Below, one piece after another: positions 3,407-57,329 of a stretch of DNA of 64,000 nt. Under the pieces are notes generated by a model that saw only the letters and a list, made by a program, of their open reading frames with translations, was not told the origin of the DNA and did not search any database. The position numbers were made by a program, and so were the translations under genes. The first letter of the stretch is position 1. Each line of letters opens with the position of its first letter. This DNA comes from Planctomycetota bacterium (GTDB lineage Bacteria > Planctomycetota > UBA1135 > UBA2386): assembly GCA_031423015.1 (NCBI GenBank), contig JANPER010000046.1, forward strand, positions 12,647 to 76,646. Direction: 5' to 3'.

Positions 3407-5658
3407 AGATCGCCTGCGTCGGCGCGGGCCCGGCGTCGCTCTACTTCGCGATCCTGATCCGCAAGGCGTTCCCCGCCGTCGAGGTCGACATCTTCGAGCG
3501 CAATCGGCACGACGACACGTTTGGCTGGGGCGTGGTGTTCTCCGACGAGACGCTCGGCAACTTCGAGGTCGCCGATCCCGAGACCTACGGCGCGATCCGC
3601 GCCGCGTTTCGCAACTGGACCGACATCGACACCTACTTCGGTGGCGAGCGCACGACGTCGACGGGCCACGGTTTCTGCGGCATGTCGCGCCAGAAGCTGC
3701 TGCTCATCTTGCAGGCGCGCGCGCGGCAGCTCGGCGTGCGGATGCACTTCGAGCGCGAAGTCCGCACACTGTCTGATCTCGGCGCCGCCGACCTGATCGT
3801 TGCCGCCGACGGCATCAACAGCATGGTGCGGGCAGCGCATCAAGACGTGTTCCAAGCGCAGCTCGACTGGCGCCAGTGCAAGTTCGCGTGGTTCGGCACC
3901 GACAAGGAACTGACCGCGTTCACGTTCGTGTTCGCGCCGACCGAGCACGGCCTGTTCCAAGTGCACGCGTATCCGTTCGACCGCGGCCTGTCGACCTGGA
4001 TCGTCGAGTGCCACGAGGACACCTGGAAGAAGGCGGGCCTCGACCAGGCAGATGAGGCCACGAGCGTGCAGTTCTGCGAGCGACTGTTCGCCGATCACCT
4101 GCGCGGCCACCGCCTCCTGGTCAACAAGTCGGTGTGGCGCTCGTTCCCCACGGTCACCTGCAAGACCTGGCGACACTGCAACATCGTGCTGCTCGGCGAC
4201 GCCGCGCACACCGCACACTTCTCGATCGGCTCGGGCACCAAGCTCGCGATGGAAGACTCGATCGCGTTGGCGACCGCGCTGACCGCATCGCGAATGCAGG
4301 ACATCCCGGGCGCCCTGGCCGCCTACGAGACAGCGCGCTACGTCGACGTGCTGAAGACGCAGCGCGCGGCGCAGACCAGCCTCGAGTGGTTCGAGAACTC
4401 GGCGCGCTACATGCAGCAACCGCCGCTCGCGCTCACCTTCAACCTGATGACGCGCAGCAAGCAGATCACGTGGGACAACTTGGGCAAGCGCGATCCTGCT
4501 TTGGTGCGGCGCGTGCGCGACGACTTTGCTGCGCGTGCCGGGGCGCCCAAGCAGTCCGACGGCCAGTGGCCGGTGCCGGTGTTCACGCCGTTCAAGCTGC
4601 GCCAACTCGAGCTGCGCAATCGCATCGTCGTGAGCCCGATGTGCCAGTACTCGGCGGTCGACGGCACGCCTGACGATTGGCACCTCGTGCACCTCGGCAG
4701 TCGCGCCGTCGGCGGCGCTGCCCTGGTGATCTGCGAGATGACGAACGTGACGGCGCAGGGCCGCATCACGCTCGGGTGCACGGGGATGTACCGCGAGGAA
4801 CACGGGCCAGCCTGGCGCCGGATCGTCGACTTCGTGCACACGCACACGGGTGCCAAGATCGGCATGCAGTTGGCGCACGCCGGTCGCAAGGGCTCGGTGT
4901 CGCACCCATGGAACAACGACGACGACCCGCTGCCGCAGGCACAGGCCTGGGAAACGCTAGCGCCGTCAGCGATCCCGTTCCGACCGCACTGGCGCACGCC
5001 GCGGGCGATGACGCGCGCCGACATGGACGCGGTGCGCGATGCCTTCGTGCGCGCCGCGCGCTGGAGCGCCGACGCTGGCTTCGACCTCCTCGAGCTGCAC
5101 ATGGCGCACGGCTACCTGCTGTCGAGCTTCCTGTCGCCGCTGAGCAACCAGCGCACCGACGCGTACGGCGGTTCGCTCGACCGCCGCATGCGCTTTCCGC
5201 TCGAGGTCTTCGCGGCTGTGCGGCAAGCCTGGCCAACGCACCAACCGATCAGCGTGCGCGTGTCGGCGACCGACTGGCTGGGCGCCGCCGGGATGACGCC
5301 ACAAGACACCGTGGTGTTGGCGCGCGCGCTCAAGGCACTCGGCGCCGACCTCATCGACGTGTCGACGGCCGGCAACGTGGCGGAGTCAACCCCCGACTAC
5401 GGTCGCATGTACCAGGTGCCGTTCGCCGAGCAGGTCCGCTTCGAGGTCGGTATGCCCGTCATGGCCGTTGGCGCCATCCTCGGCTCCGACCACTGCAACA
5501 CGATCCTCGCCGCTGGCCGCGCCGACCTGTGTTGCATGGCGCGCCCCCACCTCGGCAATCCGTACCTCACGCTGCACGCCGCGGCGAAGTACGGGTTCGT
5601 GGATCAAGCCTGGCCGGGCCAGTACCTCGCCGGTCGAGGCGCCCCGGATCTGCGCTGA
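3403..5658 (+). CDS. bifunctional FAD-dependent aromatic hydroxylase fused to Old-Yellow-Enzyme-type NADH:flavin oxidoreductase (salicylyl-CoA 5-hydroxylase-like fusion)
   Basis: ATG 3403 overlaps the fprA stop (ATGA); N-half MKIACVGAGPASLYFAIL (FAD fold) ... LLGDAAHTAHFSIGSGTKLAMEDS (FAD monooxygenase DG/GD motifs); C-half FTPFKLRQLELRNRIVVSPMCQYSAVDGTPDDWHLVHLGSRAVGGAALVICEMT ... HMAHGYLLSSFLSPLSNQRTD (OYE/TIM-barrel flavin oxidoreductase). Confidence 0.7.
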   Translation: MKIACVGAGPASLYFAILIRKAFPAVEVDIFERNRHDDTFGWGVVFSDETLGNFEVADPETYGAIRAAFRNWTDIDTYFGGERTTSTGHGFCGMSRQKLLLILQARARQLGVRMHFEREVRTLSDLGAADLIVAADGINSMVRAAHQDVFQAQLDWRQCKFAWFGTDKELTAFTFVFAPTEHGLFQVHAYPFDRGLSTWIVECHEDTWKKAGLDQADEATSVQFCERLFADHLRGHRLLVNKSVWRSFPTVTCKTWRHCNIVLLGDAAHTAHFSIGSGTKLAMEDSIALATALTASRMQDIPGALAAYETARYVDVLKTQRAAQTSLEWFENSARYMQQPPLALTFNLMTRSKQITWDNLGKRDPALVRRVRDDFAARAGAPKQSDGQWPVPVFTPFKLRQLELRNRIVVSPMCQYSAVDGTPDDWHLVHLGSRAVGGAALVICEMTNVTAQGRITLGCTGMYREEHGPAWRRIVDFVHTHTGAKIGMQLAHAGRKGSVSHPWNNDDDPLPQAQAWETLAPSAIPFRPHWRTPRAMTRADMDAVRDAFVRAARWSADAGFDLLELHMAHGYLLSSFLSPLSNQRTDAYGGSLDRRMRFPLEVFAAVRQAWPTHQPISVRVSATDWLGAAGMTPQDTVVLARALKALGADLIDVSTAGNVAESTPDYGRMYQVPFAEQVRFEVGMPVMAVGAILGSDHCNTILAAGRADLCCMARPHLGNPYLTLHAAAKYGFVDQAWPGQYLAGRGAPDLR

Positions 5659-11539: not shown

Positions 11540-14353
11540 GTGGCACAATGGCCCTCTCGCGTTCCTGCCATGACTCGCTCCTACTCGCCGCCTCCCGAAG
11601 CTGACGCCCTCGGGCCCCTGGACCGGGTCGAAGAACTGCTCGGGGAGTGTCTCGCCGAACCGCAAGCGCAGTGGCCCGCGGCGATCGAGCGCCTGTGCGA
11701 CCGGCATCCAACCGAAGCCCTGGCCCTGCGCCGGCGCTTCGCGGCACTGCAGCGCGCCGGCTTGATGCACGAGCCGGGCAGCCAAGCGAGCGACCTGGCT
11801 CTGGTGCGCGCGTTGGCGCAAGACCAGCCGGAGATCGCCGCCGCGCTGGCCGACGCGGCCGGAGTCGACCGATCGTCGGTGCACGGCCTGCCGACGCCAA
11901 CCGACGCACGGCTCGGTACCACGCTGAGCAAACGCTACCGGCTCGTCGCGCGCATCGGCGCGGGCGCGATGGGCGTGGTCTATCGCAGCCACGACGAAGA
12001 GCTGCGCCGCGAGGTCGCCGTCAAGCTGCTCGACGCCGGCCAAGTCGTCGACCCCAAGGCGGAAGCGCGCTTCCTGCAAGAAGCCGAGCTGCTCGCGGGC
12101 CTGCGCCACGACGCGATCGTGACCCTGCACGACCGCGGACGCAGCGAGCGCGGCGAGTTGTTCTTGGTGATGGAACTGCTCGATGGCGTGCCGCTCACCC
12201 GCGTGCTGCAGGCCATCGACGGCGTGTCGACTGCGGGTCACTTGGCGGCGGTGCGAGAAGTGCTCGCGGCTCGTGAAGCGGGCCAAGACGCGCCACCGGC
12301 CGGGAACGGCAAGGCGTTGCCCGAGTCGAGCGTGGTGCGCCTGATCGCGCGCTGGGGCGCCGAACTCGCCGAGGGCCTCGCGGTGGCCCACGCGGCCGGT
12401 GTTCTGCACCGCGACATCAAGCCGTCGAACGTGTTCGTGCGGCGCGACGGCCGCGCGGTGTTGCTCGACTTTGGCATTGCCACGCGAGGTGGCGACCTCA
12501 CGGCGGCTGGCACCGTGCTCGGCACGCCGTGGTACATGGCGCCCGAGCAGGCCACCGCGCAGGGCAAGCTGACACCGGCGCTCGACGTGTACGGGTTGTC
12601 GTCGTGCCTCTATCACCTGTTGTCTGGTCGCCCGCCGTTCGAGGGTGATCCGCTGGCGGTGTTGGCGCGCATCGCCAGGGACGACCCGCCGCGGTTGTCG
12701 GCGGTCAAGCCCGACCTGGCGCGCGACCTGCGAGCCATCGTCGAGACCGGCATGGCGCGCGCGCCGCGCGATCGCTACGCCAGCATGGTTGCGTTGGCTA
12801 GCGATCTGCGCGCGTTCCTCGAACACCGCCCGATCACTGCGCGACCGCTGTCGAGCGTGGGACGGCTGTGGCGAAGCGCCAAGCGTCGGCCAGCCCGCGC
12901 CGCCCTGATCGCTGCCGCCTTGGTGATCGCGACGCTCTCGCTCGGGCTCCAGGCCGCCCGCGCGCGTGAGGCTGCGCGCAGCAAGGTGGCGCGCAAGACC
13001 GAACTCATGGCGCGCTTGCCGGAGACTCTGGCGTTCGAAGGCCTGCCTGAGCAACGGCTGCTCGCCAGCGTGCGGCCGGAGCACACGGGGTTCCTGGCTG
13101 AACTCGACGAGATCGTCGCGCTCGACCCTGACGACCTGCCGCCGCTGCTGTGGCGGGCGGCGCTGCGCCTCGATGAGGGTCAACACGAAGCCGCGGCCCA
13201 AGACCTGGCGCACGCCGCGCAACGCGCGCCGACGCCCTACTTGGCCGCGGTCGCCGCGCGCTATCAACGCGCGGCGCGCGACCGCCGGGGCACCGAGTCG
13301 ATCGACCTCGCGAACATCGACGCCACGCCGAACACGCCCGCAGATTGCTTCGTCGCCGGCTTCCATGAGCTGCGCAACCGCCACATCGAGGGCTTTGCCA
13401 AGCGGGCCGACGAGCTGCTCACGCGCGCCGCCGAAGCGTACCCCCCGGCGCGCGACCTGCGCCTCGTGGCCTTGGTGGCACGGGGCGACTACGAGGATCC
13501 GCTGTACTTCATCACCGCGGTCAACGAGTCGCTGCGGCTCGAAGGCGTATACGGGCGAGGCACGGCGCGCACGTATGCGCTGCGTGGCGCGGCGCTCGCC
13601 GCCATGGGGCGCAACAAGGAGGCGTTGGCGCCGTTGCAGAAGGCGCTCGAAATGCGGCCCGGCCGCCACTCGCCGCTGCAGAACCTCGCCGTGGTGCATC
13701 GCGCGCTCGGCAACACTGAGCTAGCCAAGAAGTACATCGACGCGGCCTACGCGGCGCGACCGTACTTCTGGAACACGACGTTCCTGCGCGCGCAGATCAT
13801 GTCGGATGCTGGCGAGTTCGCTGCCGCTTGTGAGCTGGTCGCAGGCATCGACGAGAGCGATGCGCCCGACCTCGCATGGCGCAAGCCGTACCTGCTGGCC
13901 ACCATCGGCACCGAAGAGGTGGCCACGCTCTACCGTCGCGGCGCCACCGCGGCCGAACGCGAGGCCGTTGCCGCGCGCGCGTTCACCCACCTGGACACCG
14001 TCTGCGCACACCCGAGCGCGCCGGATGGCTACAAGCAACGCGCGGCCAATCGCCGCGCCATCATCCAGGCGCTCCTGCACCACGACGACGAGGGCGCCAG
14101 CATCCGTTTCCTTCGGCAGCTGACCGAGGTCCCAAACGATGCCGCGGCGCTGCGCAACCTCGCGGCCTTGTTGCCCGAGCGCAACCTGTCGGAACGCGCG
14201 ATCGCCCACCTGCGGCTGTTCCTGGCAACCTTGGCGCACCTGAGCGCCGTGCAGGACAACCGGCAACAGCTGGTGCGCGACGATGCGCGCAAGCGCGTCA
14301 ATCAACTCGAATCCACCGATACCTCAACCTCCACCGAAAGCAGAATCAAATGA
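11540..14353 (+). CDS. serine/threonine protein kinase with C-terminal TPR-repeat region
   Basis: 937-aa ORF (alternative ATG at 11570); kinase subdomains GAGAMGVVYRS, AVKLL, HRDIKPSNVFV, DFGIA, GTPWYMAPE; C-terminal half with TPR-like helical repeats. Confidence 0.8.
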   Translation: MAQWPSRVPAMTRSYSPPPEADALGPLDRVEELLGECLAEPQAQWPAAIERLCDRHPTEALALRRRFAALQRAGLMHEPGSQASDLALVRALAQDQPEIAAALADAAGVDRSSVHGLPTPTDARLGTTLSKRYRLVARIGAGAMGVVYRSHDEELRREVAVKLLDAGQVVDPKAEARFLQEAELLAGLRHDAIVTLHDRGRSERGELFLVMELLDGVPLTRVLQAIDGVSTAGHLAAVREVLAAREAGQDAPPAGNGKALPESSVVRLIARWGAELAEGLAVAHAAGVLHRDIKPSNVFVRRDGRAVLLDFGIATRGGDLTAAGTVLGTPWYMAPEQATAQGKLTPALDVYGLSSCLYHLLSGRPPFEGDPLAVLARIARDDPPRLSAVKPDLARDLRAIVETGMARAPRDRYASMVALASDLRAFLEHRPITARPLSSVGRLWRSAKRRPARAALIAAALVIATLSLGLQAARAREAARSKVARKTELMARLPETLAFEGLPEQRLLASVRPEHTGFLAELDEIVALDPDDLPPLLWRAALRLDEGQHEAAAQDLAHAAQRAPTPYLAAVAARYQRAARDRRGTESIDLANIDATPNTPADCFVAGFHELRNRHIEGFAKRADELLTRAAEAYPPARDLRLVALVARGDYEDPLYFITAVNESLRLEGVYGRGTARTYALRGAALAAMGRNKEALAPLQKALEMRPGRHSPLQNLAVVHRALGNTELAKKYIDAAYAARPYFWNTTFLRAQIMSDAGEFAAACELVAGIDESDAPDLAWRKPYLLATIGTEEVATLYRRGATAAEREAVAARAFTHLDTVCAHPSAPDGYKQRAANRRAIIQALLHHDDEGASIRFLRQLTEVPNDAAALRNLAALLPERNLSERAIAHLRLFLATLAHLSAVQDNRQQLVRDDARKRVNQLESTDTSTSTESRIK

Positions 14354-49387: not shown

Positions 49388-49684
49388 CGCGACGGGAGAG
49401 CTGCGACCGTGACGAGAGAGGAGAAGGGGCGCAGGAGTTTAGCACGCCGAATCGTGTGGTCGGCGCCGTTGCCGACACCTTCACGGGCATTCTGTGGTCG
49501 ATGCGATCGGAGTTACGGCGCAGCGAGGAAGAGGCGCGCAGGGGTCATGCGGTCTGCGAGCGCGAGACCGACGTGATCGCAAGTGGCAGGGACCTTCGAT
49601 GTCGATGGCGACGCGAGCGAGCCGGCCGATGACGTGGGGACCTGCCGCGCGTTGGCGCGAACGTTTGCACCGCCGGGGCCGCAC

Positions 49685-49724
49685 GCGCCCGTAGCTCAGT
49701 TGGATAGAGCACCGCTTTCCTAAA
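49685..49724 (+). repeat. 40-nt copy of the 5' half of tRNA-Arg(CCT): left attachment-site repeat of an integrated islet
   Basis: GCGCCCGTAGCTCAGTTGGATAGAGCACCGCTTTCCTAAA identical to 52300..52339, diverging in the 3' side of the anticodon loop. Confidence 0.8.
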
Positions 49725-49906
49725 CGGCTGCGAAGTCGGCACCGGGTACGCCCCCAAGCGCCCCAACTGGCCGCCGCGGTCGGGGTTGCGATGACTTGTT
49801 CGCCCCGGGCACGCCCCGGTGGACGCGGTTTCAGGACCTTTCGATGGCCTTACGGAGGCGAACGGTAGTGCAAGTAAGGTCAATCGGCTTGTCGATGTAG
49901 CAGGCG

Positions 49907-51118
49907 ATGGGTGGCACCAAGAGACTGATGCAGGAGTTGGAGGCGCAGGCAGAGTGGTTCGTGCCTGTTCGCGACAAGTCCGTGTGCGCGGCGTGTCTCT
50001 ACGACGAGTTCCTGGCCGGCTGGGCACGCCAATCCGCAGACCAAGGCGAGTGCACGTACTGCGAGGCCGAGGGGCCGATCCGCCCGGTGGACGGCCTGCT
50101 CGAACTGGTGCGCAGTGGCATCGACCTCGAGTGGACTTGCGCTGACTCCGCCGGCATGATCTGGGATGGGGAAGAGAAGTGTTACGTGGGTGGCGCCCAC
50201 GACACGTACGACCTCGTCCGCGACCACCTGGATCCCATCACGGAGAACGAGACGCTCCTCGCGGACATCTGGCGTGCGCTGCCCGACCGCCAATGGTGCA
50301 AGCCGGATCCATATGACCCAACTCTGTACGACCGGCTCTCATGGGACTTTCGGCGCTTCGAGAGTTGCGTCCTGCATAAGCGCAGGTTCTTCTTCCACGA
50401 AGTCCGGGAGGAAAACGAGGAGACTGGACAACCCACAGTCTCGATCGGTGGCTGGCTTCGCTTGGTCGCGCACGGCATTCGCGAGTGTGGGCTCTTACGG
50501 GACTGGGCGCCGGGAACGAAGACCTGGCGGGCGCGCGTCGACTACAAGGGCGAGCGCTTCGCAACGGCGGACGCGCTTGGGTCCCGGCGCGAGGAAGAGG
50601 CGACCCAGTCCAACAGGATGAGTCCGCCAGGCATCCCCGTGTTCTACGGTGCGCTCGACCCAGACACGACGGTAGACGAGATCTTCGAGCGACGCGAGGG
50701 GGATGCGGTTGCTTCGATAGGCTGCTTCACGCTGGCGAGGCACTTTCGCGTCCTTGATCTCACAGACCTTCCCAACTTCCCGAGCCTGTACGACCCCGAC
50801 CGCCGGAAACAGAGGAAGTACCTTCGCTTCCTTCGCGAGTTCGCGGAGCGAATCGCCAGACGGATCGCGGGCGACGACCGCCACCACATTGATTACATCC
50901 CGACGCAGATCGTCGCCGAGTACTTCAGGTTCCATCTTGAGCCCAGGGTGCGGCCACTTGATGGCATCGCGTGGAAAAGCAGTTACAGGTCGGGCGGAGT
51001 CTGCGTTGCGCTCTTCTTGAAGAACTCCGAGTGCGTTGACCGCGAGACCAACAAAGGTCCCGACAGACCTGGCGTTCGCCTGGAATCGGTCGAGCATCGA
51101 CCTCTACCGGGACCGTGA
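49907..51118 (+). CDS. Cys-rich N-domain + RES-like C-domain protein (putative NAD+-targeting toxin/defence effector)
   Basis: 403-aa ORF; N-terminal CAACLYDE...CTYCEAEG Cys pairs; aa ~235-290 NRMSPPGIPVFYGALDPDTTVDEIFER resemble the RES core (GGRWNPPG..LY.A.S...E) as recalled from MbcT/ResT; no database search run. Confidence 0.5.
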   Translation: MGGTKRLMQELEAQAEWFVPVRDKSVCAACLYDEFLAGWARQSADQGECTYCEAEGPIRPVDGLLELVRSGIDLEWTCADSAGMIWDGEEKCYVGGAHDTYDLVRDHLDPITENETLLADIWRALPDRQWCKPDPYDPTLYDRLSWDFRRFESCVLHKRRFFFHEVREENEETGQPTVSIGGWLRLVAHGIRECGLLRDWAPGTKTWRARVDYKGERFATADALGSRREEEATQSNRMSPPGIPVFYGALDPDTTVDEIFERREGDAVASIGCFTLARHFRVLDLTDLPNFPSLYDPDRRKQRKYLRFLREFAERIARRIAGDDRHHIDYIPTQIVAEYFRFHLEPRVRPLDGIAWKSSYRSGGVCVALFLKNSECVDRETNKGPDRPGVRLESVEHRPLPGP

Positions 51119-51243
51119 TCGAGGGGCTTCAACAAAGAACCCTCGCCCCGAACTTGCCCCCGCTGCTCCCATCCTGACCCCGGCTGCTCCCGACGCGGAA
51201 CTGCTGCAGAAGCCGAGTGCTCCGATCCGAGGCATGCTTCTGC

Positions 51244-52309
51244 ATGCCCAAGTTCAAGTTGACGACGACCAGCGTCAAGCAGCGCTGCCGGCCGCACGCG
51301 CCGCGTCAAGGTTGGGCGCTACCCCACCTGGACGGTTGACCAGGCCCGCAAGCGCGCCCGCGAGCTGCTGGTGCAGATGGACCGGGGCGTGGACCCGAAC
51401 GCCCAGAAGCGAGAGGCCGCCGCCCGCGGCACGACGCTGCGCGAGGCCCGAGATTGGCACTGCGCCGCCATGCGGGCGAAGCGCGCGGCGCCCAGGTCCT
51501 TGGACACGGTGCGCGAGGAGACCGATCGGCACCTGTCCGACTGGCTCGACCGGCCGCTGACTAGCATCCGTCCGACCGAGTGCGCCAACCGGCACTCGCG
51601 GGTCACCGAGACCAGCGGGCCGTACGCCGCCAACCGGGCGCTGCAGACGTTCCGCGCCTGCTGGAACACTGCTCACCCGCAGGCTCGACGACCTGCCGCC
51701 CTGCCCTACGCGTGGAGTGGTGTTCAGCCCGGTCCGCCGGCGGCGTGAGCCGATCGTCTGGGCGCAGCTGCCCGCTTGGAGGGCAGCCGTGGAGGCCATC
51801 GACAACCCGATCCGCCGCGACCTACAGCTCTTCATCCTGCTGACCGGGCTGCGCTCGACCGACGCCAAGACCGTGCGCTGGGAGCATGTGGACTTCGAGA
51901 AGGGCACGATCCACCGGCCCAAGCCCAAGGGCGGTGAGGACCGCACGTTCACCGTGCCCGTGTCGCAAGCCGTGCTCGACATCCTGCGCCGCCGGCGCGA
52001 GGAGAACGCCATCATCTTCCCGCGCGACGAGGGGTGGGCCTGGCCGTCGCGGGCAAGAAGACGACCACGTTCCCCGGCCCGCACCGCCTACGCGACACGT
52101 TCGCCAGCGCCGCGCACGAGGCCAAGGTGGACTGGTACGACCTCAAGGTCTTGATGAACCATGCGCTGCCGGCCAACGGCGACGTGACCATGGGCTACAT
52201 CCGCGTGTCGGTCGAGCACCTGCGTGAGGCGACGGAGAAGATCGCGGGCTTCCTGCTGGAGAAGATGGCTGCGCCAGAGGGTACGATCGCGCCCTGCAAG
52301 CGCCCGTAG
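51244..52309 (+). pseudogene. tyrosine recombinase/integrase, P4-like, multiply disrupted
   Basis: arm-binding start MPKFKLTTTSVKQ then stop and internal deletion; SAM-like segment RYPTWTVDQARKRARELLVQMDRGVDPNAQKREA (ORF 51371..51748); catalytic fragments LLTGLRSTDAKTVRWEHVDF (51717..52154) and HRLRDTFASAAHE...VLMNHALPANGDVTMGYIRV (52034..52309) in three different frames; stop overlaps tRNA nt 8-10. Confidence 0.7.
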
Positions 52310-52376
52310 CTCAGTTGGATAGAGCACCGCTTTCCTAAAGCGGGGGTCACAGGTTCGACTCCTGTCGGGCGTGCCA
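52300..52376 (+). tRNA. tRNA-Arg(CCT)
   Basis: manual cloverleaf: acceptor GCGCCCG/CGGGCGT (G1-U72 wobble), D-arm GCTC-AGTTGGATA-GAGC, anticodon arm CCGCT-TTCCTAA-AGCGG (anticodon CCT), T-arm ACAGG-TTCGACT-CCTGT, discriminator G, encoded CCA. Confidence 0.85.
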
Positions 52377-52380
52377 TCAG

Positions 52381-52439
52381 CCGCGCGTAGCGCGGATGAT
52401 GGCAAGCCCGGCAGGAGTCGGGCGCGCGCTTGCGCGCGC
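52381..52439. terminator. two GC-only hairpins (CCGCGCGTAGCGCGG and GCGCGCGCTTGCGCGCGC) between the convergent tRNA and phnE; possible bidirectional terminator, no U-tract
   Basis: perfect short palindromes read directly from the sequence. Confidence 0.3.
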
Positions 52440-52515
52440 GACCGACGCGGCAGCGACTCCTTCAGGCCGGCGCAGAGGAGAGGGGTTCGATGGTCGGACG
52501 CGCTCGTAGAACCAC

Positions 52516-54261
52516 TCACCCAGACATCCGCGTATGCGCAAGCCCCAACCACCGCGACAGCCGATCGAGCAGAAGCGACAAAGCGACGATCACGATCAGG
52601 TAGGTGCTGGCTTCGCGGTACTTGAAGAACGCGAAGTTGAGCTGGAAGAAGTGGCCGAGGCCGCCGACGCCGACGGCGCCGAGCACGATGGCGGTGCGCA
52701 CGTTGGACTCCAGTTGGAAGAACGCGTTGGCGAGCCAGTGCGGCGCCACGGCGGGGACGGCGCCGTACACGAACGTCTTGGCGGGTGAGCCCACGGTCGC
52801 GTGCACGCTCGCGAGCGTGCGCTCGGGCACGCCGTCGACGTTCTCGATGAACAGGCGGGTGAGGATGCCGATGGTGTGGAACATCAGCGCGACCACGCCG
52901 GCGATCGGACCCGGCAGGAAGAAGCTCACCAGCAGGTAGGCCCAGAACACTTCGGGGACGCCGCGCAGCACGACGGCGATGCCGCGCGCCAGCCAAGCGC
53001 GTGACAAGCGCAGGGTGCGCGAGGTCGACGCGGCGCGCGCGCCGGCACGGCGTGATGCCGAGCGCACCATCAGCAGCGAGCCCCAGTACGACAGCAGGGC
53101 TGACACGGCGACGGCGGCGAGCGTGGCGAGGAACGCCATCGACAGCGGCAGCACGCACGCGGCCAACGCGTGCGGCAACCACGCCAGGTTGGGCAGCAAG
53201 AAAGGCCCGAAGAACTCGCCGACGAACGCGAACTTCTCGCTCCAGGTCTGACCGCCGGTGCCGCCGAGCTGCGATAGATCCCGCTGCAGCCACAGCGCCG
53301 ACAGCGCGATGGCCACGCCGAGGCCCACACCGAGTCCGAGCAGGCGGCGACGGGCGCGCGCCAACGAGCCTTGGTTCGCCGCTTCGCCGTCGCGTTCCAT
53401 GCGGCCGCGCACGAACTGGCTCAGCAGATCGCTGCCAACGGTCAAGATCAGCATCAGCGCCAGACACGTGAGCACCTTGTCGTACTCGCCGTAGTCGGTG
53501 CGCACGCGGATCTCGTCGCCGAGGCCGCCGGCGCCGACGGCACCGATCACCGCCGCGTTGCGCACCGAGCACTCCCAGCGCAGCAGGGTGAACGACAGCA
53601 GCGGCGTGCGCACGCGTGGCAGCACCCCGTAGAAGAACGTCTGCAAGCGGCCAGCACCAACGCTGCGGATGGCCGCGAGCTGCCGAGGCGTCACCGCGTC
53701 GTAGGTCTCGGAGTAGACGCGCGCCAGGATCCCCGCGACGTTGAGCGCCAGCGCGAACACGCCGGCCTGCGCGCCGAAGCCCAAGAGCGGGATGAGGAAC
53801 ACGGCCCACAAGAGGTCGGGCACGCCGCGCAGCACGTCCTGCACGACGCGAGCGAACTCGCAGATCGCGATGCGGAGCACGCGGTTCGTGCCGCGCGCGT
53901 CGCCGACGAACACGGTGCGGCTGGCGACCAGCGACAGCGCGAACCCGAACACCACGGCGAGCGCGGTGCCGAGCATCGCCATCGCCAGCGACGTGAGAGC
54001 CAGCGGCCCAACGTAGGCGAGGAACTCGACGCTCACGTTGGGCGCCGCGAACGACGCCAGGAACCCGCTCACGCGCGCGACGGCCTTGCCGCGTTCTTCT
54101 GCCGTCGCGAGCACACCGAGGTCGTAGCCACCCACCGCAACCATGAGGCCCGTGAGCGCCGCGAGCAGCGTCAGCACCAGGAGCCCGCGCGCGCGGAACG
54201 GCCGCTTCGCCGCCGCGATGCCGTCGCCCGGTGGGCGCGAAAGATGCTGCGCTACCTGCAC
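52516..54261 (-). CDS. phnE: phosphonate-type ABC transporter permease with two fused PhnE-like domains
   Basis: 581-aa polytopic ORF with an internal duplication (two ~270-aa halves each ending in a ...AIVLGAVG.GGLG... EAA-like motif). Confidence 0.7.
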   Translation of the reverse strand: MQVAQHLSRPPGDGIAAAKRPFRARGLLVLTLLAALTGLMVAVGGYDLGVLATAEERGKAVARVSGFLASFAAPNVSVEFLAYVGPLALTSLAMAMLGTALAVVFGFALSLVASRTVFVGDARGTNRVLRIAICEFARVVQDVLRGVPDLLWAVFLIPLLGFGAQAGVFALALNVAGILARVYSETYDAVTPRQLAAIRSVGAGRLQTFFYGVLPRVRTPLLSFTLLRWECSVRNAAVIGAVGAGGLGDEIRVRTDYGEYDKVLTCLALMLILTVGSDLLSQFVRGRMERDGEAANQGSLARARRRLLGLGVGLGVAIALSALWLQRDLSQLGGTGGQTWSEKFAFVGEFFGPFLLPNLAWLPHALAACVLPLSMAFLATLAAVAVSALLSYWGSLLMVRSASRRAGARAASTSRTLRLSRAWLARGIAVVLRGVPEVFWAYLLVSFFLPGPIAGVVALMFHTIGILTRLFIENVDGVPERTLASVHATVGSPAKTFVYGAVPAVAPHWLANAFFQLESNVRTAIVLGAVGVGGLGHFFQLNFAFFKYREASTYLIVIVALSLLLDRLSRWLGLAHTRMSG

Positions 54262-54281
54262 GCGGCCCCCACGGCGACGCG

Positions 54282-55070
54282 CTAAGCGCGCCCTTCCGTC
54301 GCCGCCTGGTCGGTGCGCGCAAACAACCGGTCGCGCACTGCCGCCAACTCGCGCGGCAAGCCATCGAAGAACACGCGGCCGTCGCGCACGGCGAGCACGC
54401 GATCGAAGCGCTCAGTCACCAGCTCCAGTTGGTGCAAGCCGACGATCGCGGTGCGGCGCTCGCGACGCACCAGATCGACCAGCAAATCGATCATGTCGCG
54501 CGCCAGGGTCGGGTCGAGCGACGCCGCTGGTTCGTCGGCGAGCACCAACCGCGGCTCTTGTACCAGCAGGCGCGCAAACGCCACGCGCTGGCGCTGACCG
54601 CCGGACAGCGTGCCGATCGGCGCTTCGACTTTGTCCTCGATGCCGGCCGCGCGCAGCGCCGCCGCCGCCTTGTCGCGTTCTTGCGGCCACAGCAAAGACC
54701 AGACGCTGCGCAAGAACGACCAGCGACCCACGCGGCCGAGCAGCACGTTGTGGATCGTGCGCAGCCCAGGCACCAACGCGTCGGCTTGGTAGAGGTGACC
54801 AATGTCGAGCCGCAGCTTGCGCAGCTGCCGCGCCGACAACCCGGCGAGGTCTTGGCCGAGCACCGTCACACGACCCCGATCGGGCGCAAGATCACCCGAC
54901 AGCAGGCGCAGCAGCGTGGTCTTGCCGGCTCCCGACGGGCCGACCAGCGCGACGACTTGACCCTCGGGGATGGCGAAGGTGACGTCGCGCAGCACCGCGT
55001 GCGCGCCGAACACCTTGTCTACCCCTTCGACGCTGACCGCCGACCGCGGCTGCGCTGCGACCGCAGTCAT
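54282..55070 (-). CDS. phnC: phosphonate-type ABC transporter ATP-binding protein
   Basis: internal ATG 55070 (MTAVAAQPRS); Walker A GPSGAGKTT, signature LSGGQRQRVAFARLL, Walker B LVLADEPAASLD. Confidence 0.75.
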   Translation of the reverse strand: MTAVAAQPRSAVSVEGVDKVFGAHAVLRDVTFAIPEGQVVALVGPSGAGKTTLLRLLSGDLAPDRGRVTVLGQDLAGLSARQLRKLRLDIGHLYQADALVPGLRTIHNVLLGRVGRWSFLRSVWSLLWPQERDKAAAALRAAGIEDKVEAPIGTLSGGQRQRVAFARLLVQEPRLVLADEPAASLDPTLARDMIDLLVDLVRRERRTAIVGLHQLELVTERFDRVLAVRDGRVFFDGLPRELAAVRDRLFARTDQAATEGRA

Positions 55071-55155
55071 GCCAGGTCCCCACGAGGAATCGATGGAGTT
55101 CGTCGTTCGCGCACGGGCTTGCGATCCTCGGTTCACGCTGACGACGAACGCGGGC

Positions 55156-56079
55156 CTAGCTGCCCTTGAACATGGACTCGAGCGCCGGCGACTGCAGGAC
55201 CGCCTTGATGCCATCCCACCACTCAGGAACAGCGACCACATACTTGCCGCCGACATTGTCGTTGGCACCCATCACCGTCTTCTCGAGGTCGCTGGATCCA
55301 TCCAGTCCGAGGAACGCCTTCTTCAACTTGTCGAGCGTGCCCGCGCCAAAGCGCTGGTCGATGTCCGTGCGCGCACTCCACGAGTAGTCGATGTACTTCG
55401 GCGTCTCCCACAGCACCCGCACCTGCTCCTTGGTGACCTTGCCCTCCCTGATCCACTTGTCGTAGGTGGAGTAGTTCACCGCGCCAGCATCAAAGGTGCC
55501 GTCGCGCACATCGGTGATGGTCTTGTCGTGGTTGCCACTGAACGCCACCAAGCTGAAGAACTTCTCGGCCTCGGCGACGCCTTGCTCCTTGGCCAGCAGG
55601 TGGCGCGGCATGACGTGCCCCGACGTGCTCTTCTTGTCGCCAAAGGTGAACTTCTTGCCCGCGAGGTCGGCGACCTTCTGGTACGGCGAGTCACCCTTGA
55701 CGATGATGTAGCTCTTGAACTCGAGGTCCTTGGCGCGCGACACCAGCGGCAGCACGGCGCCCTTGCTCTTGAGCATCGCGTCGACCGTGGTCACGCCGCC
55801 GAGCCAACCGAGGTCGGCTTGGTTCGAGACCAGCGCGACGACGGCGCCTTCATACGTCGTCGGCTTGATCTCGGCGTCCACGCCCAGCTCGGCCTTGATC
55901 CAGGCCGCGATCTGCAACTGGTCATCCCGCAAGCGATCCTTGTTGGCATCCGGGATCGCCACCACGCGCAACACGGCGCGAGCTTCGCTGGGTTTGGCGG
56001 GAGCCGAAGGGGCTTCGCTGGGTTTAGAGCAAGCGGAGAGGAGAAGGCCGAGGCCGGCCACGCAGAGCGTCAGGCGCAT
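55156..56079 (-). CDS. phnD: phosphonate-type ABC transporter substrate-binding lipoprotein
   Basis: internal ATG 56079; lipobox LLLSAC; PhnD/SsuA-like fold motifs (LRVVAIPD, YEGAVVALVSNQADLGWLGG, GHVMPRHLL). Confidence 0.7.
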   Translation of the reverse strand: MRLTLCVAGLGLLLSACSKPSEAPSAPAKPSEARAVLRVVAIPDANKDRLRDDQLQIAAWIKAELGVDAEIKPTTYEGAVVALVSNQADLGWLGGVTTVDAMLKSKGAVLPLVSRAKDLEFKSYIIVKGDSPYQKVADLAGKKFTFGDKKSTSGHVMPRHLLAKEQGVAEAEKFFSLVAFSGNHDKTITDVRDGTFDAGAVNYSTYDKWIREGKVTKEQVRVLWETPKYIDYSWSARTDIDQRFGAGTLDKLKKAFLGLDGSSDLEKTVMGANDNVGGKYVVAVPEWWDGIKAVLQSPALESMFKGS

Positions 56080-56168
56080 GGCCGCGAGCCTAGGGCGCGC
56101 ACGCGGTGCACACAAACAAAGACACGCAGCGCGCGCAGATGGAACGACTACCCGGCCCCCGACACCCC

Positions 56169-57329
56169 TCAGTCGGGTTTGCGCTGCTTCACTTGGGTGC
56201 GCAGCTTCTGCAACAACTCGCGCAGCTCCTCAACCTCGCGACGCAGACCGTCGACCTCGTTCTCCAGGCGATCTTCGGGCGGCGCAACCCGCACGCGGCG
56301 CGCCGTCGGAGCGTCTGGTGGTGTCGGGTAGGCCGGCTCGGTTGTGGGTGTCGTGACGCTGCCCGCGCGCACGGGGTTTGGACTGCGCGGCCGAGTCGTG
56401 CGAACCTGCGCTGGGGCGGGCGCGACCGGAGCTGGGGTCGCAAAGTCGAGGAGCCTCCGGCGACCGTCTTGCGCACCGAACGGCGAGTGGGGGGGCGTCG
56501 TCGGGGTGGCAGGTGATGCCAGGGTGGGAGCGGGCGCCGGGGTGCGTGCTTGGCGGGGGCTACGGGCGCTGAAAGGGTCCATCGGAGCAAAGCCGCGGAT
56601 CGCGCCGCGCGGCGCGGACGTTTGGCCAGGCGGCTGGGGCGTCGGCGGTGCGATGGTGCCCGCAAAGCCCAGCCCGCTTCCACTTGGCGGCGCGCCGTGG
56701 AAGTAGTGGTGCACCTCGTGCCGATGCGTGTACTCGTGCGGCTGCGCGGCACTCGGCTCGGGAATGGCGGCCGGCGCGGGCGCCGGCCGTGCGAACATCA
56801 GGGAGCGCAACGCGCTCAATGGTGCCGTTGCTTCTGTTGGTGCTGGTGGCGGTGTTGACGCCTCGGCGACCGGCCGCACGACGCGCGGCGCAACCAAAAG
56901 CCGACGGGCGACCCCTGGCTCGCGGCCAATGTTCAACAGGTTCGTCAACGGCTCGAGCGACGGCACCTCCACGGGTGACGCGGGTGCGCCTTGGGGGGCG
57001 AGAAGACGACCGAGCACCGGTACCTCCTCCACCACCGACGCGCCCGCGTCGGACGGCTGACGACGTCCCGCGCGCGTGCTGGCCACCGGCTTATCGGTGG
57101 CCTTGTTGGTGGCCTTATCGCTGGCCTTCTCCGCGGCGATCTTGCGCGCCGCCTCCATCACCTCGGCGGCGAGCTTCTCGTCGCCAGCGCGACGCAACTC
57201 GGCGGCGACGCGTTCGAAGCGGGCCATGTCCGAAACAGGCTTGGGAGACGGCGCCGGTGCCGACTGGGCAAAGATACCGCCGAGACTCAGCATGGCGCTG
57301 GCGGCGGAAACGAACAGGAAACGACTCAT
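56169..57329 (-). CDS. secreted proline-rich protein with His-rich patch and C-terminal coiled coil
   Basis: signal peptide MSRFLFVSAASAMLSLGGIFAQ; long P/A/T-rich low-complexity region; HEYTHRHEVHHYFHG; C-terminal ENEVDGLRREVEELRELLQKLRTQVKQRK; overlaps the BlaR1 stop by 4 bp. Confidence 0.45.
   Translation of the reverse strand: MSRFLFVSAASAMLSLGGIFAQSAPAPSPKPVSDMARFERVAAELRRAGDEKLAAEVMEAARKIAAEKASDKATNKATDKPVASTRAGRRQPSDAGASVVEEVPVLGRLLAPQGAPASPVEVPSLEPLTNLLNIGREPGVARRLLVAPRVVRPVAEASTPPPAPTEATAPLSALRSLMFARPAPAPAAIPEPSAAQPHEYTHRHEVHHYFHGAPPSGSGLGFAGTIAPPTPQPPGQTSAPRGAIRGFAPMDPFSARSPRQARTPAPAPTLASPATPTTPPHSPFGAQDGRRRLLDFATPAPVAPAPAQVRTTRPRSPNPVRAGSVTTPTTEPAYPTPPDAPTARRVRVAPPEDRLENEVDGLRREVEELRELLQKLRTQVKQRKPD

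Follow-up and report, generated by a model that had tools for sequence, protein, structure and literature searches.

The 2.6-kb islet at positions 49685 to 52376 of the window (the whole stretch of 64,000 nt that was analyzed) is very probably what remains, now fixed, of a small integrative element that inserted site-specifically into the tRNA-Arg(CCT) gene of its host, a planctomycete known only from metagenomes. The element would belong to a Planctomycetota family driven by tyrosine integrases of about 410 aa (Arm-DNA-bind_3 + Phage_integrase), whose attP would carry a promoter-like box and tRNA nt 1 to about 39, and not the tRNA 3' part, which is the reverse of the usual polarity. Upon integration, the host's own 5' half would have been pushed to the left end (49685-49724), and the 5' copy brought by the element would have been joined to the host 3' half, regenerating the gene at the right end (52300-52376). 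The body of the element would run in the order junction-proximal DNA, RES cargo, integrase upstream region and integrase. Three deletions and a 1-nt insertion have since destroyed the integrase, which leaves the islet unable to excise by site-specific recombination; the RES gene is intact. The features are as follows.

49685..49724, forward strand: left repeat (putative attL core), the displaced 5' half of tRNA-Arg(CCT), nt 1-40; exact copy of 52300-52339
49725..49906, forward strand: junction-proximal element DNA running into the cargo gene, conserved with loci L015 and L005
49907..51118, forward strand: intact cargo gene for a 403-aa HEPN_RES_NTD1 + RES protein, identified with Pfam
51119..51245, forward strand: integrase upstream region with two direct repeats GCTGCTCCC at 51162-51170 and 51183-51191
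51246..52309, forward strand: tyrosine integrase pseudogene of Arm-DNA-bind_3, Phage_int_M, Phage_integrase architecture, with Pfam matches on fragments
52282..52299, forward strand: -10-like box TACGAT (52282-52287), then 12 nt to tRNA nt 1
52300..52376, forward strand: intact tRNA-Arg(CCT), identified with ARAGORN and Rfam; its nt 1-40 are the right repeat copy (putative attR)

The initial annotation had reported the left repeat as an exact copy of the start of the tRNA, with identity ending on the 3' side of the anticodon loop, and both statements were confirmed. The two copies are identical at 40 of 40 positions, and none of 100 dinucleotide-preserving shuffles gave a match, so that a repeat of this kind is not expected by chance. 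When 4 nt are added on the left, 43 of 44 nt match (the left flank of the half-copy reads ...GGGGCCGCAC). The tRNA is 77 nt long (66.6 bits), its acceptor and anticodon stems are fully paired and its anticodon loop is formed by nt 33-39; the last base of the repeat, nt 40, opens the 3' strand of the anticodon stem and lies 1 base beyond the loop. It had also been asked whether the 40-mer might be part of a second functional tRNA gene. This was ruled out, since the tRNA at 52300-52376 is the only one that ARAGORN and Rfam report for the window and neither of them calls the left copy; a YrlA-like Rfam match over the fragment (25 bits versus 69) was dismissed as tRNA-like similarity. The islet thus shows the arrangement sought by Islander, an intact tRNA gene with a cognate end fragment in the same orientation, here a 5' fragment lying upstream, and an integrase gene, here a pseudogene, between the two. 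The configuration filter of Islander explicitly allows 5' fragments that are located upstream (PMC4383910).

Comparison with a syntenic relative (L045) separates host DNA from element DNA. The relative has one tRNA-Arg(CCT) and carries no half-copy, RES gene or integrase, and it retains LVIVD and the phosphonate ABC operon, one on each side. The window is collinear with it from 52280 to 56259, and the two genomes do not differ in the 3' half of the tRNA; by this comparison the 3' part of the tRNA and the downstream DNA belong to the host, with host DNA starting straight after the tRNA. The element sits 5' of the regenerated tRNA, and therefore it must have supplied the 5' part, as had been proposed; intact relatives of the element have the same polarity. 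L045 does not offer a clean unoccupied site: the half-copy, RES gene and integrase are missing from it, but other DNA flanks its tRNA on both sides, with 2.9 kb of unrelated DNA (a 724-aa ORF) separating LVIVD from the tRNA and additional DNA inserted before PhnE on the other side. A metagenome scan for the left flank of the window joined to a tRNA obtained only unrelated tRNA-Arg(TCT) genes sharing 10 upstream nt.

As no perfectly empty site was recovered and the source is a metagenome-assembled contig, the half-copy might be a partial tRNA duplication or an assembly artefact, with the integrase remnant there by coincidence. We consider this extremely improbable. Both flanks and the left junction are recovered at 100% identity in independent Illumina contigs of the same sample, which break inside the repeat copies (49695/49712 and 52310); the association of fragment, integrase and tRNA recurs in dozens of unrelated contigs; the DNA inside both junctions is common to other elements; and the whole set is absent from L045.

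Inside the left junction, the DNA from 49725 to about 49856 is about 80% identical to that following a tRNA-Arg 5' half in L015, and is matched at about 80% in L005 as well, where it is inverted; in both loci the genes that come next are other than those of the window. The segment opens with a CGG...AAGTC/T motif, which is also present after the fragment in L051. On the right, L015, L005 and L006 share the stretch 51145-51300 ahead of their integrases, and the box before the tRNA is conserved in this set of loci too. The GCTGCTCCC repeats, whose motif is also found in L005, are putative arm-type binding sites. The box before the tRNA is probably the promoter of the regenerated gene and was probably supplied by the element, in which case the gene would be transcribed from element DNA. 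An identical box at identical spacing to the tRNA is present in L005, where the element lies in another host context. In L045, TACCAT is found 11 nt ahead of the native tRNA. Against the proposed integration history, the DNA immediately upstream of the left half-copy carries no -10-like box, and the short upstream region of the intact tRNA in the window is closer to that of the L045 tRNA than the upstream region of the half-copy is (z 3.3 versus 0.8). TACNAT-like boxes are carried by host and element copies alike, so the upstream DNA does not single out the native copy. A consensus promoter scan gave no matches. Boxes resembling TACGAT also precede tRNAs at other loci.

The RES gene is the sole intact gene between the repeats, and its earlier description as toxin-like agrees with the Pfam matches (PF18870, HEPN_RES_NTD1, E 9.7e-24; PF08808, RES, E 7.2e-18). 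The protein, which may be active, is full length, and when it is aligned with 12 homologs none of the invariant residues is missing. PADLOC and NCBIfam models gave no match to it. No Xre-type antitoxin gene adjoins the RES gene, and no ORF with a coding signal was found at 49725-49906 or 51119-51245. A homolog of 44% identity is located in L051, beside an intact integrase of the same family.

The integrase pseudogene reads in three frames and most of its arm-binding domain is missing. The reconstructed protein is 81% identical to an intact 411-aa homolog (P0001), and DNA alignment to the intact homolog locus L005 mapped four lesions. At 51296, 137 nt have been lost; at 51675, a single nt has been gained; a loss of 58 nt at 52047 falls in the catalytic domain; and a 10-nt loss at 52269 took the native stop codon with it. 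The three frames and the arm-domain deletion had been recognized from the start, but that account was incomplete, as the catalytic-domain deletion shows. Likewise, the stop codon described as overlapping tRNA nt 8-10 does exist, the last-frame ORF terminating at TAG 52307-52309, but the overlap is secondary because the 10-nt deletion took the native stop; intact homologs stop 22-103 nt short of the tRNA. PF13356 (Arm-DNA-bind_3) is present in all full-length homologs, and in the window only both of its ends outlast the 137-nt deletion. The catalytic domain (PF00589) is matched on two fragments, and the TGLRSTD, HRLRDT, NH and GYIR motifs align with invariant columns of the intact homologs. Since the reading frame is broken, an active protein is not expected. 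The junction of the 137-nt deletion is reproduced by an independent Illumina contig (L001); the other three lesions are seen in one assembly only, with no independent contig over them on record. The three frame segments contain no in-frame stops. The initial annotation had regarded the islet as an old element eroded to its present 2.6 kb. Its reading as an integrative-element remnant is supported, but neither great age nor an origin from something large is favored by a 40/40 repeat, by frames free of stops and by the 1.5-kb fragment-integrase-tRNA units that are common in the integrase family.

Intact homologs of the integrase, about 410 aa in length, were found in Planctomycetota MAGs with the same reversed polarity as in the window. 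At 16 loci, the integrase is preceded on its own strand, at a distance of 174-243 nt, by a tRNA-Arg 5' half that is cut at the anticodon loop, and at nine loci a tRNA begins 22-103 nt past the integrase. L043 has an intact integrase beside tRNA-Thr(TGT), with an exact 41-nt copy of the 5' half about 10 kb upstream. In L019, L023 and L039, homology starts at nt 1 of the fragment and extends rightward via the integrase into shared cargo. Two loci (L037 and L050) are classical members with mirror geometry and a displaced 3' half, and their fragments start within the loop (nt 30-33). The family also carries cargo of defence type (RES, GmrSD, R-M and SieB). Tandem arrays were rejected as a general explanation, there being one integrase copy per locus except for L029 and a remnant in L035. 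A scan of viral contigs for a free attP obtained one distant classical member only.

The end points of the fragments across the family make strand exchange in the anticodon loop likely; we grade it no higher because a repeat by itself cannot place the crossover. It is also conceivable that the element supplies the 5' part but that strands are exchanged in the acceptor/D-arm region (nt ~7-15), the segment up to the loop being element DNA kept for integrase binding. At the short fragment-integrase-tRNA loci, GTAGCTCA (nt 7-14) is the sole block in which fragment and tRNA always agree, whereas they diverge at positions of the D-loop and anticodon stem; the adjacent tRNAs are self-consistent, and att sites reaching over the D-loop are described in a review of archaeal recombinases (PMC8371274). 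Such an exchange is nevertheless unlikely in our judgement, since the GTAGCTCA block is near-universal in tRNAs and its identity therefore little informative, and since all family fragments end at the 3' edge of the anticodon loop and the classical 3' fragments begin in the loop, which is the signature of a loop crossover. Furthermore, the anticodon stems of the fragments vary among closely related integrases as host sequences do, and the tRNA types to which they correspond occur intact in other hosts, as expected of displaced halves derived from hosts and of an exchange in the anticodon loop.

Some family loci are not a simple attL/attR pair. In L012, L013, L020, L034 and L040, the anticodon-stem strand of the fragment cannot pair with the 3' strand of the adjacent tRNA, which has island-type cargo on its right. 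The islet might descend from a larger island with its own complete tRNA-Arg after the integrase, which would have split and replaced the host tRNA; its right-hand cargo would then have been lost when the element tRNA recombined homologously with the 3' half displaced from the host gene. The integrase does precede a complete tRNA at L006, L012, L013, L020, L040 and one end of L051; beyond this tRNA comes island-type cargo (type I R-M plus Abi, GmrSD, DNA methylase, SieB, DUF4238 and AAA_15) without a second integrase, and the upstream fragment is of a different tRNA sequence type from the adjacent tRNA. However, neither a right-hand end nor a second tRNA or orphan 3' half was found within 10 kb at any of these loci; the extra step is not needed in the window, with its 40/40 repeat and host DNA directly after the tRNA; and L043, whose integrase is intact, is simply an island between direct repeats. 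We regard the larger island as quite improbable. Neither a tRNA-derived repeat nor an orphan T-arm was found as a right-hand island end at the short fragment-integrase-tRNA loci, and no left-hand repeat was found within 10 kb at the two closest intact loci (L003/L005 and L004/L006).

The same loci raise the tentative possibility that the integrase family routinely takes over its target tRNA, splitting rare-codon genes (Arg-CCT, Arg-TCT or Thr-TGT) and supplying either a promoter plus 5' part or a whole replacement tRNA, the latter placed between integrase and defence cargo. In that case, the host would need element DNA for decoding the codon, which would make even a dead islet difficult to lose; the signature would be mismatched fragment/tRNA pairs with cargo beyond the tRNA, as in L006, L012, L013, L020, L040 and L051. 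More generally, elements that restore the 5' half must bring a promoter and an essential host gene comes under element control, a situation rarely reported in bacteria. The islet is an ordinary decayed example, yet it points to a whole Planctomycetota integrase family with 5'-half polarity. Full-length copies are present in the complete genome of Engelhardtia mirabilis Pla133 (chromosome NZ_CP036287, which holds locus L019), in which the crossover site and tRNA expression may become testable, and the defence-type cargo makes the family relevant to the acquisition of such genes by planctomycetes.

Known P4-type islands adjoin the tRNA downstream and restore its 3' end, and archaeal SSV-type integrases of the pTN3-like kind are described with an attP inside the integrase gene. 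The integrase had been called P4-like, and this holds for its architecture: like P4 Int and the CP4-57/IntS-like integrases of enterobacterial islands, the family has an N-terminal Arm-DNA-bind_3 (DUF4102), a central domain and a C-terminal catalytic domain, and targets tRNAs. It does not hold for sequence, which is distant (the intact homolog P0001 scores 29 bits against the NCBI model PRK09692, whose cut-off is 434). The RES domain of the cargo protein scores above the Pfam threshold and keeps the invariant residues, as in Xre-RES toxin-antitoxin systems; unlike them, the islet has no adjacent Xre gene and its RES domain is fused to an N-terminal HEPN_RES_NTD1 in one 403-aa protein. As in other tRNA-gene islands (Reiter 1989; Williams 2002; Islander), an intact tRNA and a fragment in direct orientation bracket integrase and cargo, with the break at the anticodon loop; here, by contrast, the element would provide the 5' part together with the DNA just upstream, and the islet is only 2.6 kb long with a dead integrase. 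In nearly all bacterial cases, it is the 3' part that the element restores, so that the promoter of the tRNA stays its own (PMC8371274). The opposite polarity is rare but already described there, for pTN3-like archaeal integrases and a few bacterial cases. For the pTN3-like integrases of Thermococcales plasmids and viruses (Cossu 2017, as summarized in PMC8371274), attB is the tRNA 5' half and the regenerated tRNA has to be transcribed from element DNA. The islet resembles them in its att site, the tRNA 5' half, and in the integrase lying upstream of the regenerated tRNA. They are of archaeal SSV type, whereas the host of the islet is bacterial and the architecture is Arm-DNA-bind_3 + Phage_integrase; moreover, an attP within the gene is not seen, as the intact homologs stop 22-103 nt before the tRNA, with the -10-like box between. 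The islet is thus a further member of a known, uncommon kind of 5'-half-restoring elements.

The islet at 49685-52376 is an immobile, decayed mini-island in which one RES-domain gene is intact. The observation behind the initial annotation is real and its interpretation is essentially right, with corrections on the stop overlap, the lesions, the age and the P4-likeness.

Features of the islet (window coordinates)
49907-51118, forward strand, cargo ORF of 403 aa with HEPN_RES_NTD1 (E-value 9.7e-24) and RES (E-value 7.2e-18) domains
51246-52309, forward strand, tyrosine integrase remnant, read in three frames
51296, integrase lesion, 137-nt deletion
51675, integrase lesion, 1-nt insertion
52047, integrase lesion, 58-nt deletion
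52269, integrase lesion, 10-nt deletion, native stop codon lost
52300-52376, forward strand, tRNA-Arg(CCT) (ARAGORN; Rfam tRNA model, 66.6 bits)

ARAGORN and Rfam revealed a single tRNA in the window, whose nt 1-40 recur exactly (40/40) at 49685-49724, as first described. Extended 4 nt leftward, the repeat is identical at 43 of 44 positions, and dinucleotide-preserving shuffles gave no comparable match. Since the anticodon loop occupies nt 33-39 of the 77-nt tRNA, the repeat ends at the first base of the anticodon stem's 3' strand, which bears out the earlier statement that identity stops on the 3' side of the loop. The left copy was recognized as a tRNA by neither program, so the 40-mer is not part of a second functional tRNA. 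A YrlA-like Rfam match over this copy (25 bits, threshold 69) was rejected and attributed to its tRNA-like part. Three Illumina-based Logan contigs from the same sample as the window (SRR20217180) are 100% identical to it. They break off inside the repeat copies, at the equivalent positions 49712, 49695 and 52310, as a de Bruijn assembler would be expected to do on meeting a true repeat.

The gene on the 3' side of the tRNA encodes a PhnE-type permease, and its nearest relative (82% identity) lies on the syntenic JGI contig L045. Collinearity with L045 extends on the left through the LVIVD gene to about 49470, and on the right over 52280-56259, from 20 nt ahead of the tRNA through the phosphonate ABC operon. 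L045 has one tRNA-Arg(CCT), with the same 3' half and a 5' half that differs by one D-loop base, and the 5'-half copy, the RES gene and the integrase remnant are all absent from it. This comparison supports an insertion. The search for an empty site yielded a relative with a single tRNA and no islet parts, but not a clean site, as additional DNA is found on both sides of the tRNA: 2.9 kb of unrelated DNA with a 724-aa ORF of no clear family separates LVIVD from the tRNA, and the gap between tRNA and PhnE is about 1 kb longer than in the window.

Several smaller features were seen around this site. At 52353-52423, the 3'-terminal ~24 nt of the tRNA and 10 nt more form a very stable hairpin with their inverted copy directly downstream (-77 kcal/mol, z -9); the hairpin is a host feature, because L045 has the same arrangement, and is perhaps a terminator competing with tRNA folding. 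L045 (reverse complement, 4695-5091) carries three to four tandem ~106-nt units between tRNA and Gly-zipper gene, each opening with the final 9 nt of the tRNA and continuing into the hairpin region. A single unit is present in the window, and those in L045 could be traces of events at the tRNA 3' end. Within 49388-49684, the conserved LVIVD upstream region and the half-copy are separated by about 215 nt that have no L045 counterpart, and the half-copy lacks a -10-like box ahead of it. Host DNA left of the half-copy, including the original tRNA promoter, may have been lost in an adjacent deletion.

The reconstructed integrase is 81% identical to P0001, an intact 411-aa homolog. Its relatives number in the hundreds (~410 aa, Arm-DNA-bind_3 plus Phage_integrase domains), and those with a named source are nearly all from Planctomycetota MAGs. 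The break into multiple frames was confirmed, and the lesions were mapped against the DNA of the intact gene, which aligns at 81.5% identity; an independent contig covers the 137-nt deletion, while the other three rest on the window sequence. The initial annotation had noted a stop codon overlapping tRNA nt 8-10. This TAG is present, but it is a by-product of decay rather than a design feature, because the 10-nt deletion took the native stop, which in intact homologs lies 22-103 nt ahead of the tRNA. The element had also been called old; the frame segments contain no internal stop codons, which, together with the 40/40 repeat, argues against great age. Additionally, Logan contig L001 ends on the right at 51323, ~27 nt beyond the 137-nt deletion junction, which may reflect k-mers that it shares with further family members present in the sample, or a population in which only some variants carry the deletion. 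Direct repeats of GCTGCTCCC at 51162-51170 and 51183-51191, 5' of the integrase start and conserved in L005, the locus encoding P0001, are candidate arm-type sites for the Arm-DNA-bind_3 domain.

A simple insertion would require the order host, repeat, element, repeat, host. In line with this, the stretch from 49725 to about 49856 shares ~80% identity with the DNA following a tRNA-Arg 5' half in locus L015 and, inverted, in L005, and a different gene follows this conserved junction DNA in each of the two. L005, L006 or L015 likewise share the DNA that precedes the integrase start and the TACGAT box that stands 12 nt ahead of the tRNA. Because the inner junction DNA is common to other elements, the tRNA 5' part and the DNA directly upstream were supplied by the element, in agreement, as to the 5' half, with the original proposal. 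The short upstream regions give no independent confirmation, because the native tRNA of L045 has a similar box (TACCAT) and the displaced half in the window has none.

The toxin-like cargo proposed at the outset is indeed intact: the protein is full length against about 100 homologs and keeps all invariant residues in an alignment with 12 of them. Its closest relative is just 44% identical, and no PADLOC or NCBIfam match was obtained. Contig L051 ties the RES cargo to the integrase family, as it starts with a 5' half of the window type (39/39), after which come 190 nt, an intact family integrase (68% identical) and a RES homolog. On this 5.2-kb contig (1-5249) two integrase modules converge: 5' half, integrase, RES and orf126 are on one strand, and the other has the terminal part of a second integrase, an entire tRNA-Arg(CCT) whose sequence type differs, and an AAA_15/AAA_21 gene.

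A scan of species-representative genomes gave 40 family loci. In nine, a tRNA begins 22-103 nt past the integrase and on its strand (five Arg-CCT, two Arg-TCT and two Thr-TGT), and in 16 a tRNA-Arg 5' half (CCT or TCT), cut directly past the anticodon loop, precedes the integrase start by 174-243 nt. Homology among L019, L023 and L039 starts at base 1 of this fragment and extends rightward via the integrase to common cargo, so the fragment is the left end of the island. Locus L043 has the window layout: its intact integrase adjoins tRNA-Thr(TGT), of whose 5' half an exact 41-nt copy lies about 10 kb upstream. The classical member L037 and viral contig L050 are the mirror image, in that a 3' half, inverted, precedes the integrase by ~200 nt; the complete tRNA of L037 is 9.3 kb off on the opposite strand. 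Anticodon stems of the fragments vary between close integrase relatives and match tRNA types intact in other hosts; judged by these sequences, the fragments appear consistent with displaced host halves.

Two further arrangements were observed. The tRNA-Thr(TGT) loci carry an inverted copy of the tRNA 3' part upstream of the integrase, by ~250 nt in L043 (9711-9754, exactly nt 30-73) or ~150 nt in L018 (about 9849), and a complete tRNA-Thr after it, so that inverted tRNA sequences bracket the integrase. A short integrase type occurs in five loci (L024, L026, L030, L032, L035), with the tRNA starting about 2.9-4.3 kb past it. L035 (Engelhardtia mirabilis Pla133) has a ~300-aa integrase that lacks the arm domain, and the DNA from there to the tRNA contains, at 12132-12302, a short remnant of an integrase and nt 1-20 of tRNA-Arg(CCT) twice over, as 20-nt copies.

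Some loci do not fit a simple repeat pair. In the anticodon stem, non-pairing differences separate the fragment from the tRNA after the integrase in L012, L013, L020, L034 and L040. Host-like genes lie left of the fragment, and island-type cargo without a second integrase lies right of the tRNA (GmrSD, DNA methylase, SieB, DUF4238; type I R-M and Abi in L006; AAA_15 in L051). Within 10 kb, neither a right-hand repeat nor an orphan 3' half was detected. The tRNA after the integrase is of one type in L012 and L014 but lies in opposite orientations. Possibly some elements bring a complete spare tRNA, or the crossover lies 5' of the anticodon stem; both leave the reading of the window as an insertion unchanged, because its repeat is perfect and host DNA directly follows its tRNA. 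In L020 (11276-11350), the tRNA-Arg(CCT) by the integrase has a C28-A42 anticodon-stem mismatch (CCGCT/AGCAG), as could be seen in a hybrid tRNA with its 5' part from the element and its 3' part from the host. L005 carries an inverted module directly past the tRNA following P0001 (11353-12232), made up of an entire tRNA-Arg 5' half, the conserved junction DNA and a gene for a 217-aa NUMOD3-motif protein. The module points to an inversion or else to a second remnant in opposed orientation, and the integrase of L005 is flanked on its other side by phage-like genes.

The value of the islet is that it points to a Planctomycetota integrase family with reversed tRNA polarity and a partly unexplained architecture. 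In bacterial recombinant tRNA genes the original promoter drives expression "with very few exceptions", and an element-restored tRNA 5' half is "seldomly" met in bacteria (PMC8371274, a review of archaeal recombinases). The Islander filters accept a 5' fragment upstream of a tRNA gene. Because both already allow for such cases, an islet restoring the 5' half is of a known but uncommon kind. The "P4-like" label holds for the domain architecture of the integrase and not beyond it. The islet works like the pTN3 case of Thermococcales, whose integrases use a tRNA 5' half as att site and leave the regenerated tRNA dependent on transcription from element DNA, but it is not a member of that family, since its attP does not lie within the integrase gene.
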